Below are positions 1,037 through 15,292 of a stretch of 15,292 nt of DNA, piece by piece. The DNA lies in IMG/VR virus record IMGVR_UViG_2675903366_000018; one strand, written 5' to 3'. The notes below the pieces were generated by a model. It made no database searches. It was not told the DNA's origin and saw nothing but the letters and a program-made list of their open reading frames with translations. The stretch is from a virus. Its lineage: Duplodnaviria > Heunggongvirae > Uroviricota > Caudoviricetes. Numbering within the stretch: position 1 is the stretch's first letter; every line of letters begins with the position of its first letter. The translations under genes and the position numbers were made by a program.

Positions 1037-1581
1037 AGCAGGCCGCCCAGCCTCCCCCAATGGGGGATTCTGGAAGAATCAACGGGTTAGGCTGGTTTCC
1101 CCGATGTTCGCCGCTGGCGAATTTCGAAAATATCAACCAGTTACGTTAACGGCTATGGTCTGACAAGACAAACCACCGGGTAAATCAGATAATTACAGCA
1201 CCAGAATGTAAATTTATACTCTGCTTTAATATCAGTGGGTTAGGCCAAAGCCCGAAAAAGTGCTTTGTAAAAACTGAATACTGTAACTTTAACTTACGGT
1301 AATTGTTCTGCCTCGGTGCGCTCTCTTCCGTGGTCATTTCGACCATGCACCACACGAAAAGGGGGAGTGTTTATCACCTCCCCTTCGTGGTGATTTCCAC
1401 CATGCAGCCATCGCACCGCCACGCAAAAGGGATTTACCACTACCAGCTATATCCCTCAAATCCACCAGCGCAACACAGAACGCATAAAACCATTACGATG
1501 ACTCAGGACGCAAAACCACGTTTAACGTTGTTTTGCACTGAACCAGAATACTGTTCGTCTTTGTCTCGATGTCCGTACGCA

Positions 1582-1875
1582 TTACGTACGCAGCCGCTCC
1601 GGTTTCTTCCACTGGTAAGTCTTTTTCTCGCTCTCCCGATACATCTCCACGCGGCGACGATATGACAACAACTCCAGAACTCTGATCCGTATGTCGCGCA
1701 TATCCACGCCGTTAAGCTCAATACCATCACGGCGCATCACCTCAGCCACCACACGCGCGTAATTTTCAGCGGTGACAGTTTCCGGCTGCGTGGCCTCACG
1801 TTTGCCTGCTGCCGGGCTGATTCCGGTAACGCGGCGGATTATTTTTAGTAGTTCGGTTTCGCTCATTCTCGTCAT
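1582..1875 (-). CDS. Hypothetical protein (97 aa), translationally coupled to terL
   Basis: ATG at 1873-1875 overlaps the terL TGA stop (1872-1874) as ATGA; charged, non-repetitive composition. No recognisable family by eye. Confidence 0.45.
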   Translation of the reverse strand: MTRMSETELLKIIRRVTGISPAAGKREATQPETVTAENYARVVAEVMRRDGIELNGVDMRDIRIRVLELLSYRRRVEMYRESEKKTYQWKKPERLRT

Positions 1876-3533
1876 ACCCCATCAAACGCCGCAAGCCGCT
1901 CTTTGTGGCTGTCGCTTATATCAAAGGCAAAATCTTCATGCTCTGCCTGGAATGTGCCAAACGCCATCAGCGCCGCAACGCTCGGGTCTATCTTGTTGGA
2001 TGATTTTTTCTTGTTCGGCTTGATATTGGCGTTCGCGTCACTCTGCATCACAACATTACTCATTGACCAGGCCAGCACCGGATCACCACGATGCACAATC
2101 ACCTTCCGGTTAACAAAAACTTCGAACGATTTCGCCGCCGGACTGAAACGAAGGTATGTTTGCGGGAACGGCTCCACCTCAAATCCCGCGCCCTGTAGCT
2201 GCGTCCTCAGGTGCGTGGCGTTCCATGTATCGAAACCCACCAGCCTGATATTGAAATTCTCTGCATCCGCCATGATGTCATCACGGATACGGTCATAATC
2301 AATGCAGTCACCCGGTGTTGTGCGTATCCAGCCCGCCTTTGCCCACTGGCGATAGATGGCGCGGTTTTTATTGGCAGGGTTCTGTAGCTGAAATTCCGGC
2401 AGATAGTGACGGGAAACCAGCATAATCTTTTTACCGACCGGGAAGGCATAGCACACGCTGGAAATATCGCTGGTTGATGATAAGTCCAGCCCCGCGTAGC
2501 ACTCCTGCCCGTATAAATCCGCCTCCGCGAACGTTCCGGCGCACTCCGCCCATGCACCGTTACCCATCCATGGCGTAGCCCCCTGACACCAGATGTTAAA
2601 TCGCTTAGTAAGCATCTCCACCCACTGCGACGGAATACCCCGCGCTTTCTGGATGGTTGAGGCCAGTTTTTCACGATCGACGGAAACATCGATATTGGGA
2701 TTCGCCTTTATCCACATCGCCGGATCGTCAACCTCGCTTTCATCATCCAGCTCGTAAATCAGCACGAACATGGATTCATTCACCTCTTCACCATCCAGTA
2801 TCTGGCAGCAATAGTCATAGTGTTGTTTACAGGCTGAAACAACGTTGCTCCCCGATGTGGTGATGGCAAATAACAGCCCCTCCGGGCGTGCCCCCATTCC
2901 CAGTTCAAGCGCGGAATAAACCCCGTTGTCAGGGTGCAGGTGATATTCATCCACAATGGCGAGACTCGGGTTTGTCCCCTCAATGGTTGCCGCTTTTGCT
3001 GCCAGTGGCTTTAACAGGCTGTTGGTTTTCGGGTGTATCACCTTGTGCGCCTGAATATTTACCCGCTTTCGTAACGGTCGGGATAAAAGGCACATCTGAC
3101 GCGCATCATCAAACACGATCCGCGCCTGATCACGACTCACGGCGGCGGTGTAAATATCCTGCTGCCCGTTTTCCATAACCAGAAACCAGTTAGCCAGGAT
3201 AGCCGCGACCGTGGATTTGGCATTTTTTCGCGGTACTTCAATGAATGCGCTGGTGTATTTGCGCCGTCCGGTGGCCTTAACCTTAAAGCCCAGGATGCAG
3301 GCAAAGGCGAACTGCTGCCACGGCTCCAGCTCAATGGGGCTACCGCGCATTGCGCCTTTTACGTGCGGACACACCCTGGAAAAGGCAATAAACCGCTCCA
3401 CGACCTCCGGATCGAACGTGTAAAGGGGGTTTTCAAGGTCAGAAAAATACCGTTTAACGGCCTGTTTCAGTCGTTTACAGGCCGTAATTTTGCCGTTTTT
3501 TACGCCTTCTGCGTACTCATGCCAGGTGGTCAA
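1872..3533 (-). CDS. terL: Phage terminase large subunit
   Basis: 553-aa ORF; conserved terminase N-terminus (EYAEGVKNGKITACKRLKQAVKRYF), P-loop-like VPRKNAKST and Walker-B-like LAIVDEYH. No ATG near the 5' end; most upstream start is TTG at 3531-3533 behind a purine-rich AGAGGAAGAGGA stretch, overlapping terS by 17 nt. Confidence 0.9.
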   Translation of the reverse strand: MTTWHEYAEGVKNGKITACKRLKQAVKRYFSDLENPLYTFDPEVVERFIAFSRVCPHVKGAMRGSPIELEPWQQFAFACILGFKVKATGRRKYTSAFIEVPRKNAKSTVAAILANWFLVMENGQQDIYTAAVSRDQARIVFDDARQMCLLSRPLRKRVNIQAHKVIHPKTNSLLKPLAAKAATIEGTNPSLAIVDEYHLHPDNGVYSALELGMGARPEGLLFAITTSGSNVVSACKQHYDYCCQILDGEEVNESMFVLIYELDDESEVDDPAMWIKANPNIDVSVDREKLASTIQKARGIPSQWVEMLTKRFNIWCQGATPWMGNGAWAECAGTFAEADLYGQECYAGLDLSSTSDISSVCYAFPVGKKIMLVSRHYLPEFQLQNPANKNRAIYRQWAKAGWIRTTPGDCIDYDRIRDDIMADAENFNIRLVGFDTWNATHLRTQLQGAGFEVEPFPQTYLRFSPAAKSFEVFVNRKVIVHRGDPVLAWSMSNVVMQSDANANIKPNKKKSSNKIDPSVAALMAFGTFQAEHEDFAFDISDSHKERLAAFDGV

Positions 3534-3873
3534 GCTCGTCCTCTTCCTCTGTTTCCGGTGGATTTCTGCGGCGGCTTACCGGGTCAAAACCCAGCAAAGA
3601 AGCCATTTTGATCATTATTCTTTCTGCGTCAGCCTTTGCGCTCAGTGCGGGGTTTCTGCTCTCGCTGCCCTGACTGTTAACAATGCTGAAGCCGCGTGTC
3701 GCAAGGTCTTCGACGGCTTTGCGGTATAGGGAGTAGTTAACGCAATACAGTTCCAGATTGCTCCAGTCGGCGGGGGTAAGGTCTTCCCGCCCGGATAGCT
3801 GGCGCGATTTTTCCTTCCACTGCCTGACCGCGATTTCATCCAGGTAAGCGGGGGCTTTTGGTGGTCTTGCCAT
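3517..3873 (-). CDS. terS: Phage terminase small subunit (P27-family-like)
   Basis: Start taken at internal ATG 3871-3873 (MARPPKAP...), not the 165-aa ORF start. C-terminal GSESRNPALSAKADAERIMIKMASLLGFDPVSRRR matches the P27-family pattern; sits immediately upstream of and overlapping terL. Confidence 0.7.
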   Translation of the reverse strand: MARPPKAPAYLDEIAVRQWKEKSRQLSGREDLTPADWSNLELYCVNYSLYRKAVEDLATRGFSIVNSQGSESRNPALSAKADAERIMIKMASLLGFDPVSRRRNPPETEEEDELDHLA

Positions 3874-4161
3874 GTTCTTTTTTCGCCCAATTATTTTCAA
3901 AAAAATTCCCGTGCACAAAAATTTGAGGAGGCGGTCGGTGTCCGGCATGGACGGTTTCGTCCTGAAAACCTCCCCCACCCCCTCTGACGGCCTCACCAGC
4001 GATTGCGAAAACATTCCATGACCTCGCGGTCACGGTCGGTTAATCGCTTCGCTGTGGTGCGTTCTGTGCGCCCTGTCCTGTTGGCTTTGTGCTCTGTCTC
4101 CTGTGTCTTCCATGTGTCACGCTGCCTTATCAGTCCACGTATCAGCCTGTTTTGCTCCTGT

Positions 4162-4602
4162 TCAGTCATCATCGCCATACATCCAGTCGTTACGGTGTGC
4201 TGCCCGTTCTTCCTGATCGCGATACATGCCCGCCTTACGGTTCGCTTTCGTGGCTGGATCTTCCCGTGTCGTCTTACGGTTGTGGCACGTCTGACACAAT
4301 GCCTGGTGATTCCACTCAGGCCAGAAGAGAACATCACCGCCGCCATTGATGGGGATAATGTGATCCACCACAAAGGCTGGCGTATAAATACCCTCAGCCA
4401 GACAACGCACACATAACGGATTTTTTTTCAGGTACATGGCGCGGTATTTGTCCCACTGTCGGGAATACCCGCGCGCGCGGCGGTGTCCCCGTCTGGCATC
4501 CTCTGCACGCCATGCAGCCCGCCTGTGCTCTTCACACTTGCCGGACTTCACGCGCTTATTACAGCCCGGCTCAGTGCATCGCCTTAATGGTTGCCATGGC
4601 AT
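4162..4602 (-). CDS. HNH endonuclease (phage packaging-associated)
   Basis: N-terminal Cys cluster (CTEPGCNKRVKSGKCEEH) and HNH core (VVDHIIPINGGGD...NHQALCQTCHNRKT). ATG at 4600-4602 overlaps the upstream gene's stop as ATGA. Sits next to terS/terL as in cos-type HK97-like packaging modules. Confidence 0.85.
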   Translation of the reverse strand: MPWQPLRRCTEPGCNKRVKSGKCEEHRRAAWRAEDARRGHRRARGYSRQWDKYRAMYLKKNPLCVRCLAEGIYTPAFVVDHIIPINGGGDVLFWPEWNHQALCQTCHNRKTTREDPATKANRKAGMYRDQEERAAHRNDWMYGDDD

Positions 4603-4898
4603 CAGTACACCCCCACATCACGATAAACCGACCAGAGCGCGGAAATCGTCAGGGGAATTTCTTTTGTATCGGTATCGCCAAGCGTTGTCCGGTACTCGTA
4701 CAGTTGCGAGATGTACATCAGGCAACCAATTTTTATTGCAGGGGTAAATTCCAGGCCGTCATCAAAACGCCTGCCAATATGCTTCTGGCATACCTCCAGC
4801 GCCGCACTTATGTATGCCTGAATCAGTGTGTCTTCTGTGTTACCATCTATGCGGCAGTGAAGTTTGGCCTCTTCCAGGGTTATTTTTTCTGCTGTCAT
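4602..4898 (-). CDS. Phage head-tail connector protein (gp6-like)
   Basis: 98 aa; N-terminus ITLEEAKLHCRIDGNTEDTLIQ is typical of gp6-like connector proteins; ATGA overlaps at both ends. Confidence 0.7.
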   Translation of the reverse strand: MTAEKITLEEAKLHCRIDGNTEDTLIQAYISAALEVCQKHIGRRFDDGLEFTPAIKIGCLMYISQLYEYRTTLGDTDTKEIPLTISALWSVYRDVGVY

Positions 4899-7069: not shown

Positions 7070-8239
7070 CTAGCCAGCTTTCATTTCCAGAATTTTGATG
7101 GCGTTTGAATCCACCACACCACCGCCCAGATATTTATCCGTGTGGACCTTGTAGAATCCGGGTTCAGTAATGTTGTCCGGTCGGGTGCGAATCCCTGTTA
7201 CATGATCAACGATGAAATAACCACGACTGAAATCGCCAACCGCCAGCGGTGCTTTTCCTGCGCCGATGTCCGGCATGGACTCCAGGCAGTAAACAGGACG
7301 ACCAAGCAACATATCCGGCGCACCTTCTTTAAGGCTGTCGCGCCAGATATAATCGCCGTTCTCATTTTTCAGCTTCTGTAGTGTCCCTGCCGTGCCCGAG
7401 TTCATCACCCAGACGGCATTTTTGCGGTATTTCGCTTTCAGCCTGTAGAGAATGTCGATCAGTTCGTCCGCTGTAATGGCGGTTCCACTTGCCGCTATCA
7501 TTTTTTCAATGGTGCCAAAAGCGCGGGTTTTGTCACTGGTCGCTGCACGGGTGTAAGCCATGAAGCCTTTCGGCTTGCCGTTACCGTCGCCATTAACAAA
7601 ATCATCCTCTTCGGTGCTGGCGAACGTGTCGGCAATTTCGGAGGATAACCAGCCCAGAATATCCACCTCTGAAAAATCCAGAATTTCCTGCGTGGTTTTC
7701 GGGTAGGCGTAGATCGGATTCAGCTTGATGGTTACGCGTTCAATTTTCGGGGTGTTGGTTTCGCTGCGCGCGCTGCCTTCTGTGCCTCTTCCTACAGTTG
7801 CGCCGCCAGTGGAAACCAGTTTCTGAAACTCATTTGATTTTGCGGTCTTCACGGTCGCGATCACGCGCATAACACTGTCATCCTGTAGCTGGCGCATGAC
7901 TTCGCGATCAAGCTCAGGAATTACGGTATATCCGCCATCCCTGCCGCTGTCAGTGCTGGTGGATAGTGATCGCACATCTCCGGTTACGATGTAGTTACGC
8001 AATTCATCAGATGATAATTTCCGGATGCCCGTTCCTGGCTTGCTGCGTTCTTCATCAGCCACAGACTCGAGGCGGGAAATTTCTGTGCCGAGGGAATCGG
8101 CTTTTGCACGCAGTTCATCAAACTGTTTGCCCTCGTCATCGTTCAGGCTACGGTTTTCACTGTCGGCTTTTTCCAGCAGGGATCGCATCTGGTTTTTCAG
8201 GGCGTTTTTTTGCTGGCGGAGTTCGATTAATTTCTTCAT
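7070..8239 (-). CDS. Major capsid protein, HK97 fold, with N-terminal coiled-coil (scaffold/delta-like) region
   Basis: 389 aa; the first ~100 residues are heptad-like and rich in E/K/R/L, followed by a capsid-like domain; ATG at 8237-8239. Followed directly by protease and portal genes. Confidence 0.85.
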   Translation of the reverse strand: MKKLIELRQQKNALKNQMRSLLEKADSENRSLNDDEGKQFDELRAKADSLGTEISRLESVADEERSKPGTGIRKLSSDELRNYIVTGDVRSLSTSTDSGRDGGYTVIPELDREVMRQLQDDSVMRVIATVKTAKSNEFQKLVSTGGATVGRGTEGSARSETNTPKIERVTIKLNPIYAYPKTTQEILDFSEVDILGWLSSEIADTFASTEEDDFVNGDGNGKPKGFMAYTRAATSDKTRAFGTIEKMIAASGTAITADELIDILYRLKAKYRKNAVWVMNSGTAGTLQKLKNENGDYIWRDSLKEGAPDMLLGRPVYCLESMPDIGAGKAPLAVGDFSRGYFIVDHVTGIRTRPDNITEPGFYKVHTDKYLGGGVVDSNAIKILEMKAG

Positions 8240-8513: not shown

Positions 8514-8762
8514 TTATTGTTTCACTGGATCCCGCATTCTGCGTCTTATTTTCCACAGATATTCGATCATCGCTTCCACCTGCTCACGGTTGGTTGCGAA
8601 AATTTCCCCGGTCAGTGAGCTGCGCAGAAAATCATGATGATCCACAACAAACAACGCATCGGAAGAAAGCAGACGGCGATATTTTTTTGCTGTCGTGGTT
8701 TCCAGATCATCAAAACCATGAAACTTTTTATGTTGCTGAACTTCTTCAAATGTCACAGGCAT
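8514..8762 (-). CDS. Hypothetical protein (82 aa)
   Basis: ATG at 8760-8762 preceded by a perfect AGGAGG; the ORF-track start at 8780 is GTG and lacks an RBS. No recognisable family by eye. Confidence 0.5.
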   Translation of the reverse strand: MPVTFEEVQQHKKFHGFDDLETTTAKKYRRLLSSDALFVVDHHDFLRSSLTGEIFATNREQVEAMIEYLWKIRRRMRDPVKQ

Positions 8763-8794
8763 GTTTCCTCCTGCTACCACGATACCAGAAACAG

Positions 8795-9091
8795 TTAATA
8801 ACCGTTATCAATTATCCCTTTTTTTTTCGGGTAGTTCCTGAACATCTCACCGCCAGGTTTCTGTAAGCCCATCCCGGTATGTGTGCGGTTTATGGCCTCT
8901 TTCAGTATTCCGAAATTATCCGGCATGACTGGTGGGCGCGCTGCCTTACGGATACATTCCTCGCGACGCTTTGCCACCTGTTCGCGCTCCTTGTCAGTGC
9001 TCACCAGCCACATAACATCAGCCCAACGTGCCGCCGCTCTCCGGTACAGCCCTTTAGCCTCCAGTTCTTCCGCTTTGCTGTCTTTAATCAT
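8795..9091 (-). CDS. Small transcriptional regulator, PerC/ANR-like (tentative)
   Basis: 98 aa from ATG 9089-9091 (GAGG 6 nt upstream); N-terminal motif AEELEAKGLYRRAAARWADVM resembles PerC/ANR-family small regulators found in enterobacterial prophages. From memory only. Confidence 0.4.
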   Translation of the reverse strand: MIKDSKAEELEAKGLYRRAAARWADVMWLVSTDKEREQVAKRREECIRKAARPPVMPDNFGILKEAINRTHTGMGLQKPGGEMFRNYPKKKGIIDNGY

Positions 9092-9595: not shown

Positions 9596-9722
9596 TGCGG
9601 GTTATAATCGCACTTTTGCGGGTTATAACTGCCGTTTTGCGGGTTACGTGCGGGTTATTGATTTCCTTTTTATTCATACAGTTAATGCACTTATACACAG
9701 GATAACCCGCATAACCCGCAAC
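9596..9722. repeat. Putative replication origin: 4 direct TGCGGGTTAT iterons (starts 9596, 9617, 9638, 9649), 40-bp AT-rich spacer, 2 inverted ATAACCCGC copies (9702, 9711)
   Basis: Read directly from sequence; 21-bp spacing of the first three iterons; ends 20 bp before the replication gene's stop codon (9743-9745), the usual place for the ori in PICI/SaPI-type satellites. Confidence 0.6.
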
Positions 9723-9742
9723 TTTTCACCTCACACAGGGGG

Positions 9743-11875
9743 TTAATCTTCTGCCTCAGGCTGGAACATCAGCACGTAAAAAACATGCTGCTTCCCCCCA
9801 ATTTTGCCGAGCGCCTTTTTCTTGTAACGGCGATCGTTACCCGCTTCCAGCATTCCGGCAGCACTCAACGCGCGGGCAAAGTGAGACGGATTAAATCCCT
9901 GTGCTATCTCACCCTCAAACACATGCGGGAACGTGTAAAAACGGAACTCGTCATCTTCGTTTCTGATACTCCCCTTTCTGTATCCGGCAAGCTCTTTAAT
10001 CGGTAAATCACGCTCGTCAGAGTTGGGCCAAGGAAGGTATCTGCTGAATCCGAACGACGCTAAAAAAGCCTCTGCCTGTTCAACCATCTGTTTAAACTCC
10101 CTGTTCCCCGTGCCGAACTCCTTCACCCAGGCATTAAAATTATGCTGAATGGCATCGCGGCATTCCTGCTCATCCCAGCCAGTAACATGACCGGAAAGTA
10201 CAAGCGCGGCCTCCAGTATGGCGAATCGTTCCCCCACACGGTGAACCTGTTCGCCGTAGCTCTCCGGTATCAGGTTGCGCCACCGCTCGCGACATGCCCT
10301 TACCGCGTCCTTTGCCTCCTGCTGGTGTTCTGCCAGCCATTTAACCCACTCACGACCTGCCGCCCCGTGATTTTCTGTCCAGGCATCTTTTAACGCGTCT
10401 GCGTGCGCCTTTCCGGTGCTGTATTCGTGAAACTGCGAGGCCTTTTCCATCGGCACGTTAAGCAGACGGACAAGCTGCCCCGCTTTAATTTTTATCCCTT
10501 CCGTTTTGAGGAATGTTTCAACGTCCATTTCTCCGGTGCTGATTGCCACCGTGCGCCAGTGTTTTATCTCCCTGTTGCCGCCGTCCTTCGCCCCCTGTAA
10601 TTTCCCCGAACCGTTAAACAGCGTATAGGCTGACGTGGACACCTCCCGCGCGTTTCCGGCCTGGCCTATTTCATCCAGGGGTAACAGCCCGTCATTATGT
10701 GCTTCGGCCTCGTTGGCGATACCTAACGCCGTTCCGTACCAGGTCAGCCGTTGCGCGTCCGGCTCTCCCCATAAACTGGATGCGATGTTCTGTGTGGTGG
10801 TTTTCCCTGCTGATGACTGTTCGAAAAGATGTACCCCGAAGCCGTCAGCACCCACCAGCCCGATTAATGGTGCTGATAACGATACCGCCACACCCAGCAT
10901 CATGGACGGATTACCACCAGCCAACCGCGCAACGGTATCGCGCCAGCCCTCCGCCGTTCCTGCCTCGGAATAACCATTAACAGCGGCAGTTTTTCCGGTA
11001 AACAGGACTGGCTTTTCGCAATCACCAATGACCGAACCGTCCGGCATGATGTACGCGCCAAAATGCCAGCCCGTTGTTGTGCTTAACTGCCATTCCTCAT
11101 GGTTTCCGCTTAACTGCATCCAGTCAGCCAGGATAGCCCTGTATTTACCGTTGGTTGTCACATTCAGTCCGTGGTCTTTCAGCAGCCGCCAGCCGTCACG
11201 GTCGCCAATGCCCCCACACGGGATCGCCATTGTGATGACTTCATGGTTTGCTGGTTTTTTCCAGCGCATCACGCGGTAATGCTCTTTGCCGATTGTCCCC
11301 GTTCCCAGTAGTTCAAGCGGGGAACATAACCACGTCTCAGGCCGGATAATTTCGCCTGACTGCTTATCCACTTTTGGCGTTACCCAGAAAACACCATCGG
11401 CACGGCTTTCAACGCGGGGCTTTAATTCATCATCACCCGGGCTTGTGGTGGTTTTTTTCTTTACCGGAAGCTTAATTACCAGATCTGCAGAAAGATTCTG
11501 ACGCTCAACGTTCAGATAGCGCCGCCAGTTCTCACATTTCTGACCGTGCATTCCTTCAGGGTAAAAATTCGCATCCTGAATATCTGCCGCCGCCAGCTTC
11601 TGACCGATCTTTTTGGTCTCCACTAAATCCAGTTCTCCGGCCTGGTACAGCCTTACGCGTTTTTTCCCATCCGGAACAATTTTCAGCGCATCAAGTTCGG
11701 CAAGCTGATTTGGCCCAAGCCACACAGGCGGCACATCATCGCCAGATGCGGGGCCGTCCTGCTCCTGCCACTGTTTTGCATGTGCCCACGCATCACTACC
11801 CGCGAAAATAATTACCTCTGTGTCTTTGTGTTTTATTCCGCGTGGTTGTTTTTTTACGTTCGGTGCCAGTTTCAT
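9743..11875 (-). CDS. Replication initiator, primase/helicase-type (Pri-Rep-like), with central P-loop NTPase
   Basis: 710 aa; Walker A GVHLFEQSSAGKTTT and Walker B GLLPLDEIG in the central region; resembles DUF927/primase-associated replication proteins of satellites; ATG at 11873-11875 overlaps the upstream ORF's stop (ATGA). Confidence 0.75.
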   Translation of the reverse strand: MKLAPNVKKQPRGIKHKDTEVIIFAGSDAWAHAKQWQEQDGPASGDDVPPVWLGPNQLAELDALKIVPDGKKRVRLYQAGELDLVETKKIGQKLAAADIQDANFYPEGMHGQKCENWRRYLNVERQNLSADLVIKLPVKKKTTTSPGDDELKPRVESRADGVFWVTPKVDKQSGEIIRPETWLCSPLELLGTGTIGKEHYRVMRWKKPANHEVITMAIPCGGIGDRDGWRLLKDHGLNVTTNGKYRAILADWMQLSGNHEEWQLSTTTGWHFGAYIMPDGSVIGDCEKPVLFTGKTAAVNGYSEAGTAEGWRDTVARLAGGNPSMMLGVAVSLSAPLIGLVGADGFGVHLFEQSSAGKTTTQNIASSLWGEPDAQRLTWYGTALGIANEAEAHNDGLLPLDEIGQAGNAREVSTSAYTLFNGSGKLQGAKDGGNREIKHWRTVAISTGEMDVETFLKTEGIKIKAGQLVRLLNVPMEKASQFHEYSTGKAHADALKDAWTENHGAAGREWVKWLAEHQQEAKDAVRACRERWRNLIPESYGEQVHRVGERFAILEAALVLSGHVTGWDEQECRDAIQHNFNAWVKEFGTGNREFKQMVEQAEAFLASFGFSRYLPWPNSDERDLPIKELAGYRKGSIRNEDDEFRFYTFPHVFEGEIAQGFNPSHFARALSAAGMLEAGNDRRYKKKALGKIGGKQHVFYVLMFQPEAED

Positions 11876-14053: not shown

Positions 14054-15292
14054 TCAAGAATTTTGGGTGTAAATTCGCGGGGTCATAACAACGATTTTTT
14101 CATCATTGTTCTGGAGAAGCTCGAGACGGTCTACCCATAGATTAAGAGCATCACGTTTTGCATCAAGATAACGGGAGTGGTTATAGACTCGCTGCATCCC
14201 TGGCATCTGGTGGGCTGTAAGCTGCTCGACAATATGCGGATCCACGCCTAAATCGTTCAGCATGGTTGTAAATGTGTGCCGGATGTCATGCAACGACCAG
14301 GGGGCTTGATTAATGCGTCTGTGTGCCGTTCTTCCGTACTCTGATACGGATGATTGCCCTTTCAGTTCTCCAAGCAATAAGCCCGTGTGCCTGTTCTTCT
14401 GCACCAGCTTCGTGACGAACGGCAAAATGCTTTCCGGTATTGGCCTGAATATGGCGACCTTCGTTTTGCTGTGCTCCTTCGGTACTGTCCAGAGCATTTC
14501 TTTAAAATCCCACTCCTGCACCTCAGAGCGCCTTAGCTCAGTGGTACGGCATCCAAAAACAATCAGGAGGCGAATTAGGGCGCTGTAGTATGGCGGGAAT
14601 ATTTTGTCATCCAGGGCGCGGAGTAATTCCCCAAGCTCCTTATTTGTTAGTACGCGCTCGCTCACTTCTGCTTTTTTTCCCACATCACCGACAACCATAT
14701 CATCAAGAACGTTGCTGATTGCGTATCGTCGTTTTCGGCAGTACTTAAGCGCCTGTTTGCATACCTGTAGCAAAAATCCGGCTGATACCGGATTACGCTT
14801 AGCAAGCTGGTCAAAACAGGCCAGCCAGTGGCGTAGCTCGCATTTTTCCAGTGGCATAGCGCCAATCTGGCTAATTATGTGTTTATTGATCCGGCTTTTC
14901 AGTGATTCGTAGTCAGTGCGCTTTTCCTTTGCGTACGATTCAAGCCAGTAAGTGAGCGCTTCCTTAACCGTCACGGGGGCTAACGCATCCTGTACAGCAT
15001 GATTAAGTTCATAGCGCGGATTTTTCCCCTCAGCCAGCCAGGCGCGACACTGTGCCGCTTTTTCCCTGGCAGCTTTCAGGCTCAGATCGGGATAATTGCC
15101 CAGCCTCAGACGTTCCGGTGATATCTGCCTACCAGTTCCGGCCCTGTAAGTGAAATACCAGGTTAACAGGCCATTGATTGAATGCCTTACGCTAAGGTTG
15201 CCACCATCATTAAAAAAGGTGCTTTTTGTGGTTGGTGATCCGCTTAATTTTCGTAAAAGAGTGTCGCTAAGTCTATGAATTGCCCTGCTCAT
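14054..15292 (-). CDS. int: Tyrosine site-specific integrase (P4-like family)
   Basis: 412 aa; catalytic-domain motifs GCRTTELRR, HDIRHTF (H-x-x-R) and YNHSRY (catalytic Tyr region); ATG is the last three bases of the window, so upstream attachment site and promoter are not visible. Confidence 0.9.
   Translation of the reverse strand: MSRAIHRLSDTLLRKLSGSPTTKSTFFNDGGNLSVRHSINGLLTWYFTYRAGTGRQISPERLRLGNYPDLSLKAAREKAAQCRAWLAEGKNPRYELNHAVQDALAPVTVKEALTYWLESYAKEKRTDYESLKSRINKHIISQIGAMPLEKCELRHWLACFDQLAKRNPVSAGFLLQVCKQALKYCRKRRYAISNVLDDMVVGDVGKKAEVSERVLTNKELGELLRALDDKIFPPYYSALIRLLIVFGCRTTELRRSEVQEWDFKEMLWTVPKEHSKTKVAIFRPIPESILPFVTKLVQKNRHTGLLLGELKGQSSVSEYGRTAHRRINQAPWSLHDIRHTFTTMLNDLGVDPHIVEQLTAHQMPGMQRVYNHSRYLDAKRDALNLWVDRLELLQNNDEKIVVMTPRIYTQNS

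Follow-up and report, generated by a model that had tools for sequence, protein, structure and literature searches.

PICIs are major vehicles for the transfer of virulence, defence and chromosomal genes in Enterobacterales, and EcCICFT073 and EcCIEDL933 are experimental models among them. Both islands carry, as their last backbone gene before attR, a member of the family described here: c1505 in EcCICFT073 and the ORF after terL in EcCIEDL933 (WP_000133425.1; NZ_CP008957 1694479-1694760), whose products are 69% and 72% identical to the protein of our locus. That locus occupies the same place in a stretch of 15,292 nucleotides, referred to below as the window. Rpp (RppA = c1503) resembles the family in being small and PICI-specific, and in Rpp-type PICIs its gene lies directly upstream of the family gene; however, Rpp blocks lambda and is needed for transfer, while c1505 does not block lambda and is not needed. 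We found no paper that discusses the family, and none on c1504 or gene 1795.

We identified the EcCICFT073 homologue by mapping primers listed in the supplement to the Rpp study (PMC6739421). Those named 'c1505' match 18317-18337 and 18670-18690 of the EcCICFT073 locus (NC_004431, our L007) and bracket the homologue at 18374-18655, which aligns over its full length with the window protein; the homologue is c1505. In that study c1499 to c1507 were all cloned in pBAD18, and lambda plaques were reduced by c1503 only (PMC6739421). Over-expression of c1505 does not block lambda, a result obtained with the homologue and not with the window allele.

The homology arms of the c1504-07::cat construct end at L007 18103 and resume at 19002, so that cos2, c1505 and some 350 nt of right-arm sequence are missing from the construct. 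Its lambda and phi80 lysogens (JP13413 and JP13891) are listed beside c1503* derivatives (PMC6739421), from which we infer that c1504-07::cat is the 'WT' reference island of the transfer assays. Since this reference island is transferable without c1504-07, c1505 is dispensable in K-12 for induction, excision, replication, packaging, transfer and establishment. RppA supplied in trans also raised lambda-mediated transfer of a plasmid with only the EcCICFT073 cos1 (PMC6739421). Thus, c1505 is neither an essential packaging factor nor a lambda interference factor. With its identity known, the unassigned ORF becomes a question, namely what selective advantage maintains a gene that is superfluous for transfer in the laboratory, and a caution follows, as the widely used c1504-07::cat 'wild-type' island is without a conserved backbone gene.

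These data bear directly on one of the two roles that the sequence-only reading had offered for the window gene, that of a helper-interference factor blocking a step of helper reproduction. The family is confined to satellites, a search of 50,697 phage records having yielded no credible homologue, and interference genes sit in this part of Gram-positive PICIs (PMC6739421). However, pBAD18-c1505 was among the clones that left lambda plaques unreduced, mutations in cf-PICI genes leave helper titres unchanged (bioRxiv 2022.09.08.507074), and the protein is highly conserved over islands that use very different helpers. For lambda, interference is already largely refuted, and as a general role we consider it very unlikely.

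In the cf-PICI work every gene of the 'packaging module' was mutated, and the sole 'hypothetical' mentioned is gene 1792, whose mutation severely cuts cf-PICI transfer (bioRxiv 2022.09.08.507074). We rejected the equation of the small gene with EcCIEDL933 gene 1792: the capsid gene is 1786, and consecutive numbering would place 1792 at the ORF between HNH and terS. The window has a 61-aa ORF there (3993-4178, minus strand), which overlaps the end of the HNH gene upstream of terS and is 80% identical to an EcCIEDL933 ORF (L005 12159-12341). By gene numbering, this ORF is probably 'hypothetical gene 1792'.

All long ORFs of the window are on the minus strand, and its main genes are the following.

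14054-15292, minus strand: integrase (Pfam Phage_integrase and Arm-DNA-bind_3)
9743-11875, minus strand: DUF927 primase-type replication protein (Pfam)
7070-8239, minus strand: HK97-type major capsid protein (Pfam)
After the capsid gene in transcription order, minus strand: S78 prohead protease, portal, head-completion protein and gp6-like connector (Pfam)
Then, minus strand: HNH endonuclease, P27-family small terminase and large terminase, the last at 1872-3533 (Pfam)

The island has no tail or lysis genes, measures 15.3 kb from clpS to int and has the same gene order as the prototype capsid-forming PICI EcCIEDL933. An island of E. coli PEC148 is 97% identical to it and shares this gene order, with an annotated terminase large subunit and AlpA-type HTH regulator. 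By gene content, gene order and size, the window island is a capsid-forming PICI (cf-PICI). The sequence-only reading had put the small gene at the distal end of the island, next to terL, and both placements hold. Position 1 adjoins clpS, the integrase lies at the opposite end, and positions 1-1581 contain no long ORF, leaving only non-coding DNA between the small gene and clpS; the upstream gene matches TerL_ATPase (E 4e-26) and TerL_nuclease (E 3e-52). The clpS-cspD site is occupied by a different PICI in strain F11.

The small gene and its junction with terL can be read as follows.

1872-3533, minus strand: terL, upstream in the same transcription unit (Pfam TerL_ATPase and TerL_nuclease)
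1582-1875, minus strand: ORF of 97 codons from the first ATG (ORF list; translation free of stops)
1582-1866, minus strand: coding sequence from the conserved start, 94 aa plus stop (start invariance, dN/dS and phrog_1561 match)
1867-1875, minus strand: optional three-codon N-terminal extension MTR (read from the sequence; absent in most homologues)
1867-1871, minus strand: 5-nt spacer CGAGA, if the start is at 1866 (sequence)

The ORF had been described as a 97-aa gene joined to terL by an ATGA overlap. The gene is real and the overlap is physically present, with the ATG at 1875-1873 overlapping the terL TGA at 1874-1872 to give ATGA at 1872-1875 (minus strand GGGGTATGACGAGAATGAGC), but neither the length nor the overlap is conserved. 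A second ATG at 1866-1864, residue M4 of the 97-aa reading, is invariant in the homologue alignment, and the MTR extension is missing from most homologues. Among 93 related loci, the upstream ATG is restricted to the sub-group of the window island, and even there it is lost in two of 15 members (L020 and L022), where the terL stop is TAA. In the other locus groups a GGAGG, GGGGG or GAGG Shine-Dalgarno sequence is positioned for the M4-equivalent ATG, and the 100% identical copy in strain PEC148 is annotated as 94 aa in RefSeq. Taken together, the invariance of M4, the rarity of MTR, the Shine-Dalgarno placement and the RefSeq length indicate that the true start is very probably the ATG at 1866 and not the upstream one. 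The earlier observation is confirmed with its start codon corrected, and its interpretation as a whole is partly supported.

From the start at 1866 the gene begins 5 nt past the terL stop, a spacing that would still permit coupled translation; between the two genes no terminator-like site was found. The window gene is thus read most simply as the last cistron of the capsid/HNH/terS/terL block, which would be co-expressed with the late genes through coupled translation. The arrangement differs from that of c1505, which lies 279 nt after rppA, behind the inverted cos2, while the window allele follows terL closely and has the upstream in-frame ATG.

Coding evidence comes from 62 distinct alleles, in which there are no internal stops and this is the sole frame open in all. 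Variable sites show a third-position excess in the allele sets (27/24/60 and 32/30/61 by codon position), and mean dN/dS over the 62 alleles is 0.20. The single open frame, the low dN/dS and the third-position bias show that the ORF is a bona fide protein-coding gene under purifying selection. The alternative of a spurious or decaying ORF without function could point to the many truncated and frameshifted family variants in databases and to the lack of any reported phenotype, yet these allele data, together with motifs invariant across genera and a conserved position, make it extremely improbable.

A lack of conservation in related islands, named by the sequence-only reading as a refuting result, was not observed: the gene is present across the 93 loci and, by blastn, in 1566 of 5426 complete E. 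coli genomes (29%), with up to six copies in a genome. The protein matches phrog_1561 over its full length (E 2.4e-47, residues 4-96 of the 97-aa reading against profile positions 1-92 of 93) and phrog_7271 over its core, the C-terminal two thirds (E 1e-6). In a large protein collection the family forms 920 clusters at 90% identity, which come from Escherichia, Shigella and Salmonella and are without exception unnamed or labelled 'prophage protein'. When 1.84 billion representatives were searched exhaustively with a profile, just 41 clusters were returned, mainly fragments of the same family, which marks the long form as a narrow family; one match of that search, the 2175-aa P0146, is a eukaryotic SEA-repeat protein and was rejected as a repeat-inflated false positive. 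A weak tblastn match in a 'Klebsiella phage' record revealed a short form of 62-65 aa, which corresponds to phrog_7271 and comprises 113 clusters from Enterobacter, Klebsiella, Citrobacter, Raoultella, Pluralibacter, Buttiauxella, Rahnella and E. coli. Since that record itself holds a PICI segment and gave the single weak match among the phage records, the family is satellite-specific. A contig scan with back-translated patterns gave a single locus, the patterns being too narrow.

Searches of Pfam (E up to 10), NCBIfam and the PADLOC defence-protein families (0 at E up to 10) gave no match for the protein, and a PDB sequence search gave chance matches only, though Rpp structures are deposited there. 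As a member of an already catalogued PICI family the gene is unexceptional, and a new mechanism is not indicated so far. The family is nevertheless among the few backbone genes common to capsid-forming, Rpp-type and other PICI architectures.

The 94-aa protein, of 11 kDa, is basic, with a pI of 9.98 and a net charge of +5.5. Alignment of the long and short forms delimits two segments.

1585-1770, minus strand: core common to the short subfamily, residues 33-94 (alignment of long and short forms)
1585-1620, minus strand: C-terminal tail T-Y-Q-W-K-K-P-E-R-L-R-T (most conserved segment of the family)

In the core, a first helix leads through a G-x-x-L-N turn into a long helix rich in Arg (IR.R ... 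RRR). Residues G48, L51, N52, R60, W86 and P89 are invariant in both forms and all present in the window protein, and K88 is near-invariant in the family alignment. The tail consensus P-Y-x-W-K-K-P-x-x-x-R-R is kept in the short forms and even in the divergent members P0149, P0128 and P0132. The tail codons vary synonymously, which indicates that conservation of the tail acts on the protein level.

Structure prediction and profile comparison had been proposed as checks; the first gave a layout, but neither gave a relative. Two AlphaFold2 runs, with 25 and 45 sequences, predict the same arrangement. An N-terminal helix (3-14) is followed by a variable linker without order (15-32) and a second helix (33-46); a short turn or hairpin then leads into a helix of about 30 residues (53/56-83/86), which ends in a less confident basic tail. 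Model confidence is moderate, with an overall pLDDT of 74 and 72, values of 77-87 over residues 31-80 and low values in the tail. The predicted protein is thus a basic three-helix one with a flexible N-terminal helix and linker. We found no fold match for it and detected no DNA- or RNA-binding fold or motif.

In lambda and similar phages the gene right after terL encodes gpW, a small basic head completion protein that the helix/short hairpin/helix topology of our first model superficially resembles. Pfam gpW is unmatched at E up to 10, however, and the hhalign probability is 0.3%. The profiles compared by hhalign (gpW, RppA, 180-aa TerS, DUF1441, L008 type, Nu1-like and P27 TerS) all gave probabilities below 1%, and the probability against every Rpp/TerS-like class is at most 0.7%. 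Because of these values, we dismissed weak BLASTP matches to Rpp-like N-termini (E 0.1-1.5 against nine sequences). The sequence-only reading saw no resemblance to any head or packaging component, and the Pfam and hhalign results agree with it.

SaPI CpmB and Ppi (the latter cited in bioRxiv 2022.09.08.507074) are satellite-encoded short helical proteins of the late/packaging operon. The small protein has no sequence relation to either, and conservation of the family over unrelated capsids (HK97-type, lambda gpE-type and a ClpP-capsid fusion) argues against a capsid-size scaffold. No recognisable relation links the protein to known families of head, terminase, Rpp, gpW, excisionase or defence proteins.

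Lambda N is an arginine-rich-motif RNA binder in which an arginine run on a helix is followed by Q-W-K. By analogy, the small protein also has an Arg run on a helix followed by Q-W-K, and its gene lies beside hairpin-rich sequence. The two differ in that the spacing from RRR to Trp is 14 residues in the small protein and 10 in lambda N, the motif is C-terminal in the former and N-terminal in the latter, and no nut/boxB-like element was identified. It is the charge and composition of the protein that suggest nucleic-acid binding.

The gene upstream of the small gene varies among the 93 loci as follows.

TerL: 35 of the 93 loci, gap 5 or 13-14 nt
RppA-type protein: 6 loci, gap 214-294 nt
180-aa 'terminase small subunit' type and Nu1-like type (one scoring reference): 32 loci, gap mostly 11, 73 or 251-265 nt
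DUF1441 type: 4 loci, gap 2 nt in three
L008 type: 5 loci, gap 245 nt in four
No recognisable packaging gene directly upstream, but PerC, an accessory gene or a long non-coding stretch: several loci, gap varies
Lambda gpI-like protein: Enterobacter and Rahnella islands, capsid-forming and DUF1441-type, gap 8-19 nt

The five TerS/Rpp-like classes (RppA, 180-aa TerS, DUF1441, L008 type and Nu1-like) account for about 48 loci together. What stays constant across at least seven island architectures is that the backbone ends with the small gene and the attachment-site arm follows; this attR-side place is also found in EDL933, CFT073, EC4115, P27_L1, F11, L008, L012, L096 and L099. The chromosomal flank begins only about 200 nt beyond the stop codon in compact islands (L096), and in two records with the excised order, L095 and L100, 340-400 nt lie between the small gene and int. 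In the excised circle the small gene is therefore placed just upstream of attP and int, all in the same orientation.

This distribution bears on the other role proposed earlier, that of a packaging accessory. An essential factor is excluded by the transfer of the c1504-07::cat island, and what we keep is a non-essential accessory, a small basic cofactor that would aid the terminase or Rpp-TerS at cos or stabilise packaged DNA, affecting efficiency and not specificity. Such a protein would fit a gene that is late-expressed, encodes a basic product and has a packaging-specificity gene directly upstream in most loci (with a gap of at most 14 nt in about 45 of 93). In about 25 lambda-cos (Rpp-type) islands, including EcCICFT073, an inverted exact lambda cosN also lies exactly 76 nt upstream of the start. 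However, RppA in trans with the cos1 plasmid sufficed and no other island gene was needed (PMC6739421), the reference island that is transferred has no homologue, and the protein has no profile similarity to TerS, Rpp or gpW. The gene also persists without a packaging gene just upstream, and in other genera it follows a tail-assembly homologue. We regard a packaging accessory as rather unlikely.

EcCICFT073 (L007) has the exact lambda cosN at 17559-17570 (+) and 18298-18309 (-), an inverted pair flanking rppA. The notion that cos always adjoins the small gene was rejected, being true only for part of the Rpp-type islands (at -76) and not for cf-PICIs.

The constant neighbour of the gene in the window is its non-coding flank.

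1-1581, no strand: right arm, from the small gene to clpS, with hairpin blocks, ori-like iterons and putative integrase arm sites

The hairpin-rich blocks of this arm are common to other PICIs. The sense (minus-strand) transcript of 700-1150 folds into a row of stable hairpins with z = -5.9, and none of 100 shuffles was as good; no Rfam match was found in the window at E up to 1. In EcCICFT073 and EcCIEDL933 the first hairpins come directly after the stop of the homologous gene. The roughly 440 nt that separate the stop codon from the hairpin block in the window (1145-1581) are absent in these two islands; ACGTAA occurs at both junctions of the stretch and the last codon is changed from R to T. 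The stretch may represent a short segment inserted at the stop codon.

Near att, the block at 162-240 contains tandem ATTAACTACACC twice (174-197) and three CGAACAA repeats, and it is conserved in PICIs at clpS, yifB, phoQ and smrA. These repeats are probably arm-type sites of the P4-like integrases. A second ori-like element (456-485 and 556-611) has TGCGGGTTAT-type iterons and inverted copies ATAACCCGCA on either side of an AT-rich stretch, and it matches the iteron set near the primase gene (9596-9730) in motif and layout; PEC148 has the same ori-like flank despite a different replicase. A 21-bp perfect palindrome, TTTTCCACCAATGGTGGAAAA, occurs twice (298-320 and 1009-1031), with half-sites at 908, 1337 and 1394. 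When ATGGTGGAAA is searched at up to one mismatch, seven of the eight matches in the 15.3-kb window fall inside 300-1403; the palindrome is also present in EcCICFT073, and the clustering is not general in other islands. We rejected the ATGGTGGAAA half-sites as a binding array of the protein: they are enriched in the window flank and inconsistent in other islands.

A gene that always adjoins the attR arm could encode a recombination directionality factor or Int cofactor, which would bind the attP/attR arm and steer excision against integration. The protein is small and basic (pI about 10), as is typical of such factors, the adjoining arm keeps its direct repeats (tandem ATTAACTACACC and CGAACAA) despite different att sites, and besides AlpA a dedicated xis has not been described for these PICIs (PMC6092414). 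However, the protein has no winged-helix or HTH signature and no match to Pfam Phage_AlpA, HTH_17 or Xis, and the homologue-deleted island still excises, transfers and establishes. AlpA over-expression, moreover, induces excision and replication, requiring int and pri (PMC6092414). Nor does the protein co-vary with the att or Int type: in PEC148 the identical protein accompanies a yifB-specific integrase (a different att site) and a different replication module, and F11, at the same clpS site, has a protein that is 71% identical. A directionality factor is an improbable reading.

We are confident in the descriptive part of our own reading, that of a conserved satellite backbone gene encoding a basic protein of the phrog_1561 family. 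Its mechanistic part, a non-essential nucleic-acid-binding accessory at the late-operon/attP/int junction, is tentative. The Arg-rich helix and the Trp/Lys tail would act on the neighbouring arm, whether in the form of DNA or of the late transcript reading through it, and this action would tune the junction, through read-through into int or through Int-att transactions. Capsid building, the choice of DNA for packaging and helper blocking would lie outside such a role. A modulator of the right arm is the most economical proposal, because the attachment arm is the only constant context of the gene and the protein looks like a nucleic-acid binder. The structured arm (z = -5.9), the blocks common to PICIs, the pI of 9.98 and the invariant R60, W86 and P89 argue for it. 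The role also fits the dispensability of the gene, since c1504-07::cat still transfers without the homologue and most of the right arm. Against a right-arm modulator stand the absence of co-variation with Int, the accessory genes that sometimes intervene between the small gene and attR (L097, L021), and the fact that the c1504-07 deletion costs nothing essential for excision, transfer or establishment.

The contrast between purifying selection in nature (dN/dS 0.2) and dispensability in K-12 to K-12 transfer would also suit a conditional factor not seen in laboratory crosses, one that works against host defences or competitors, whether delivered with the DNA or made to act in the donor at a late stage. 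A small, basic, late-expressed and satellite-specific protein whose gene borders a hot spot for the insertion of accessory and defence genes is consistent with this. It has, however, no similarity to known anti-defence proteins, and the mass spectrometry reported for EcCIEDL933 particles covers the major capsid protein only. We judge a conditional factor unlikely.

Equally unlikely, in our estimate, is a broader reading in which the family forms a satellite-specific class of small nucleic-acid binders with an Arg/Trp tail, linked either to regulation of int in the circle only or to delivery with the DNA. In the first variant, the late transcript would be coupled to the attP-int junction, and read-through into int or retro-regulation of it would take place in the circular form only. 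In the second, the protein would ride with the packaged DNA, protecting or establishing it in wild recipients. Either variant, if true, would be invisible in the K-12 crosses carried out to date.

Several loci show rearrangements around the small gene. L039 has two copies of it (8760-9041 and 10001-10285) with a truncated Nu1-like gene between them, and L021, L023 and L025 have an extra perC-like gene in the hot spot downstream. L095 (PQ569648.1) is the 106-kb record 'Klebsiella phage P12620-1', of which 1310-4733 is a cf-PICI segment in the excised order of terL, small gene, about 340 nt and integrase; the ENA contig L100 has the same circular order. The L095 record may have been assembled from more than one source, or satellite DNA that had been packaged may be part of it.

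A full-length gpI homologue (phrog_32, E 2e-70; Pfam Lambda_tail_I) precedes the short-form gene at these positions.

L096: 8378-8992, gpI homologue
L097: 8378-8992, gpI homologue
L099: 8364-8981, gpI homologue
L100: 7954-8571, gpI homologue

The carriers are Enterobacter-type cf-PICIs and Rahnella DUF1441-type PICIs, and the homologue is thus a tail-assembly gene in satellites that are said to borrow only tails. Two chimeric ORFs complete the set. P0155 joins a TerS N-terminus to the last 27 residues of the small protein, which implies a deletion from terS' through terL. In P0270 the N-terminus of Fis is joined at a shared L-N-G-Q-D to the C-terminus of the short form, and the Rahnella islands of this kind adjoin fis.
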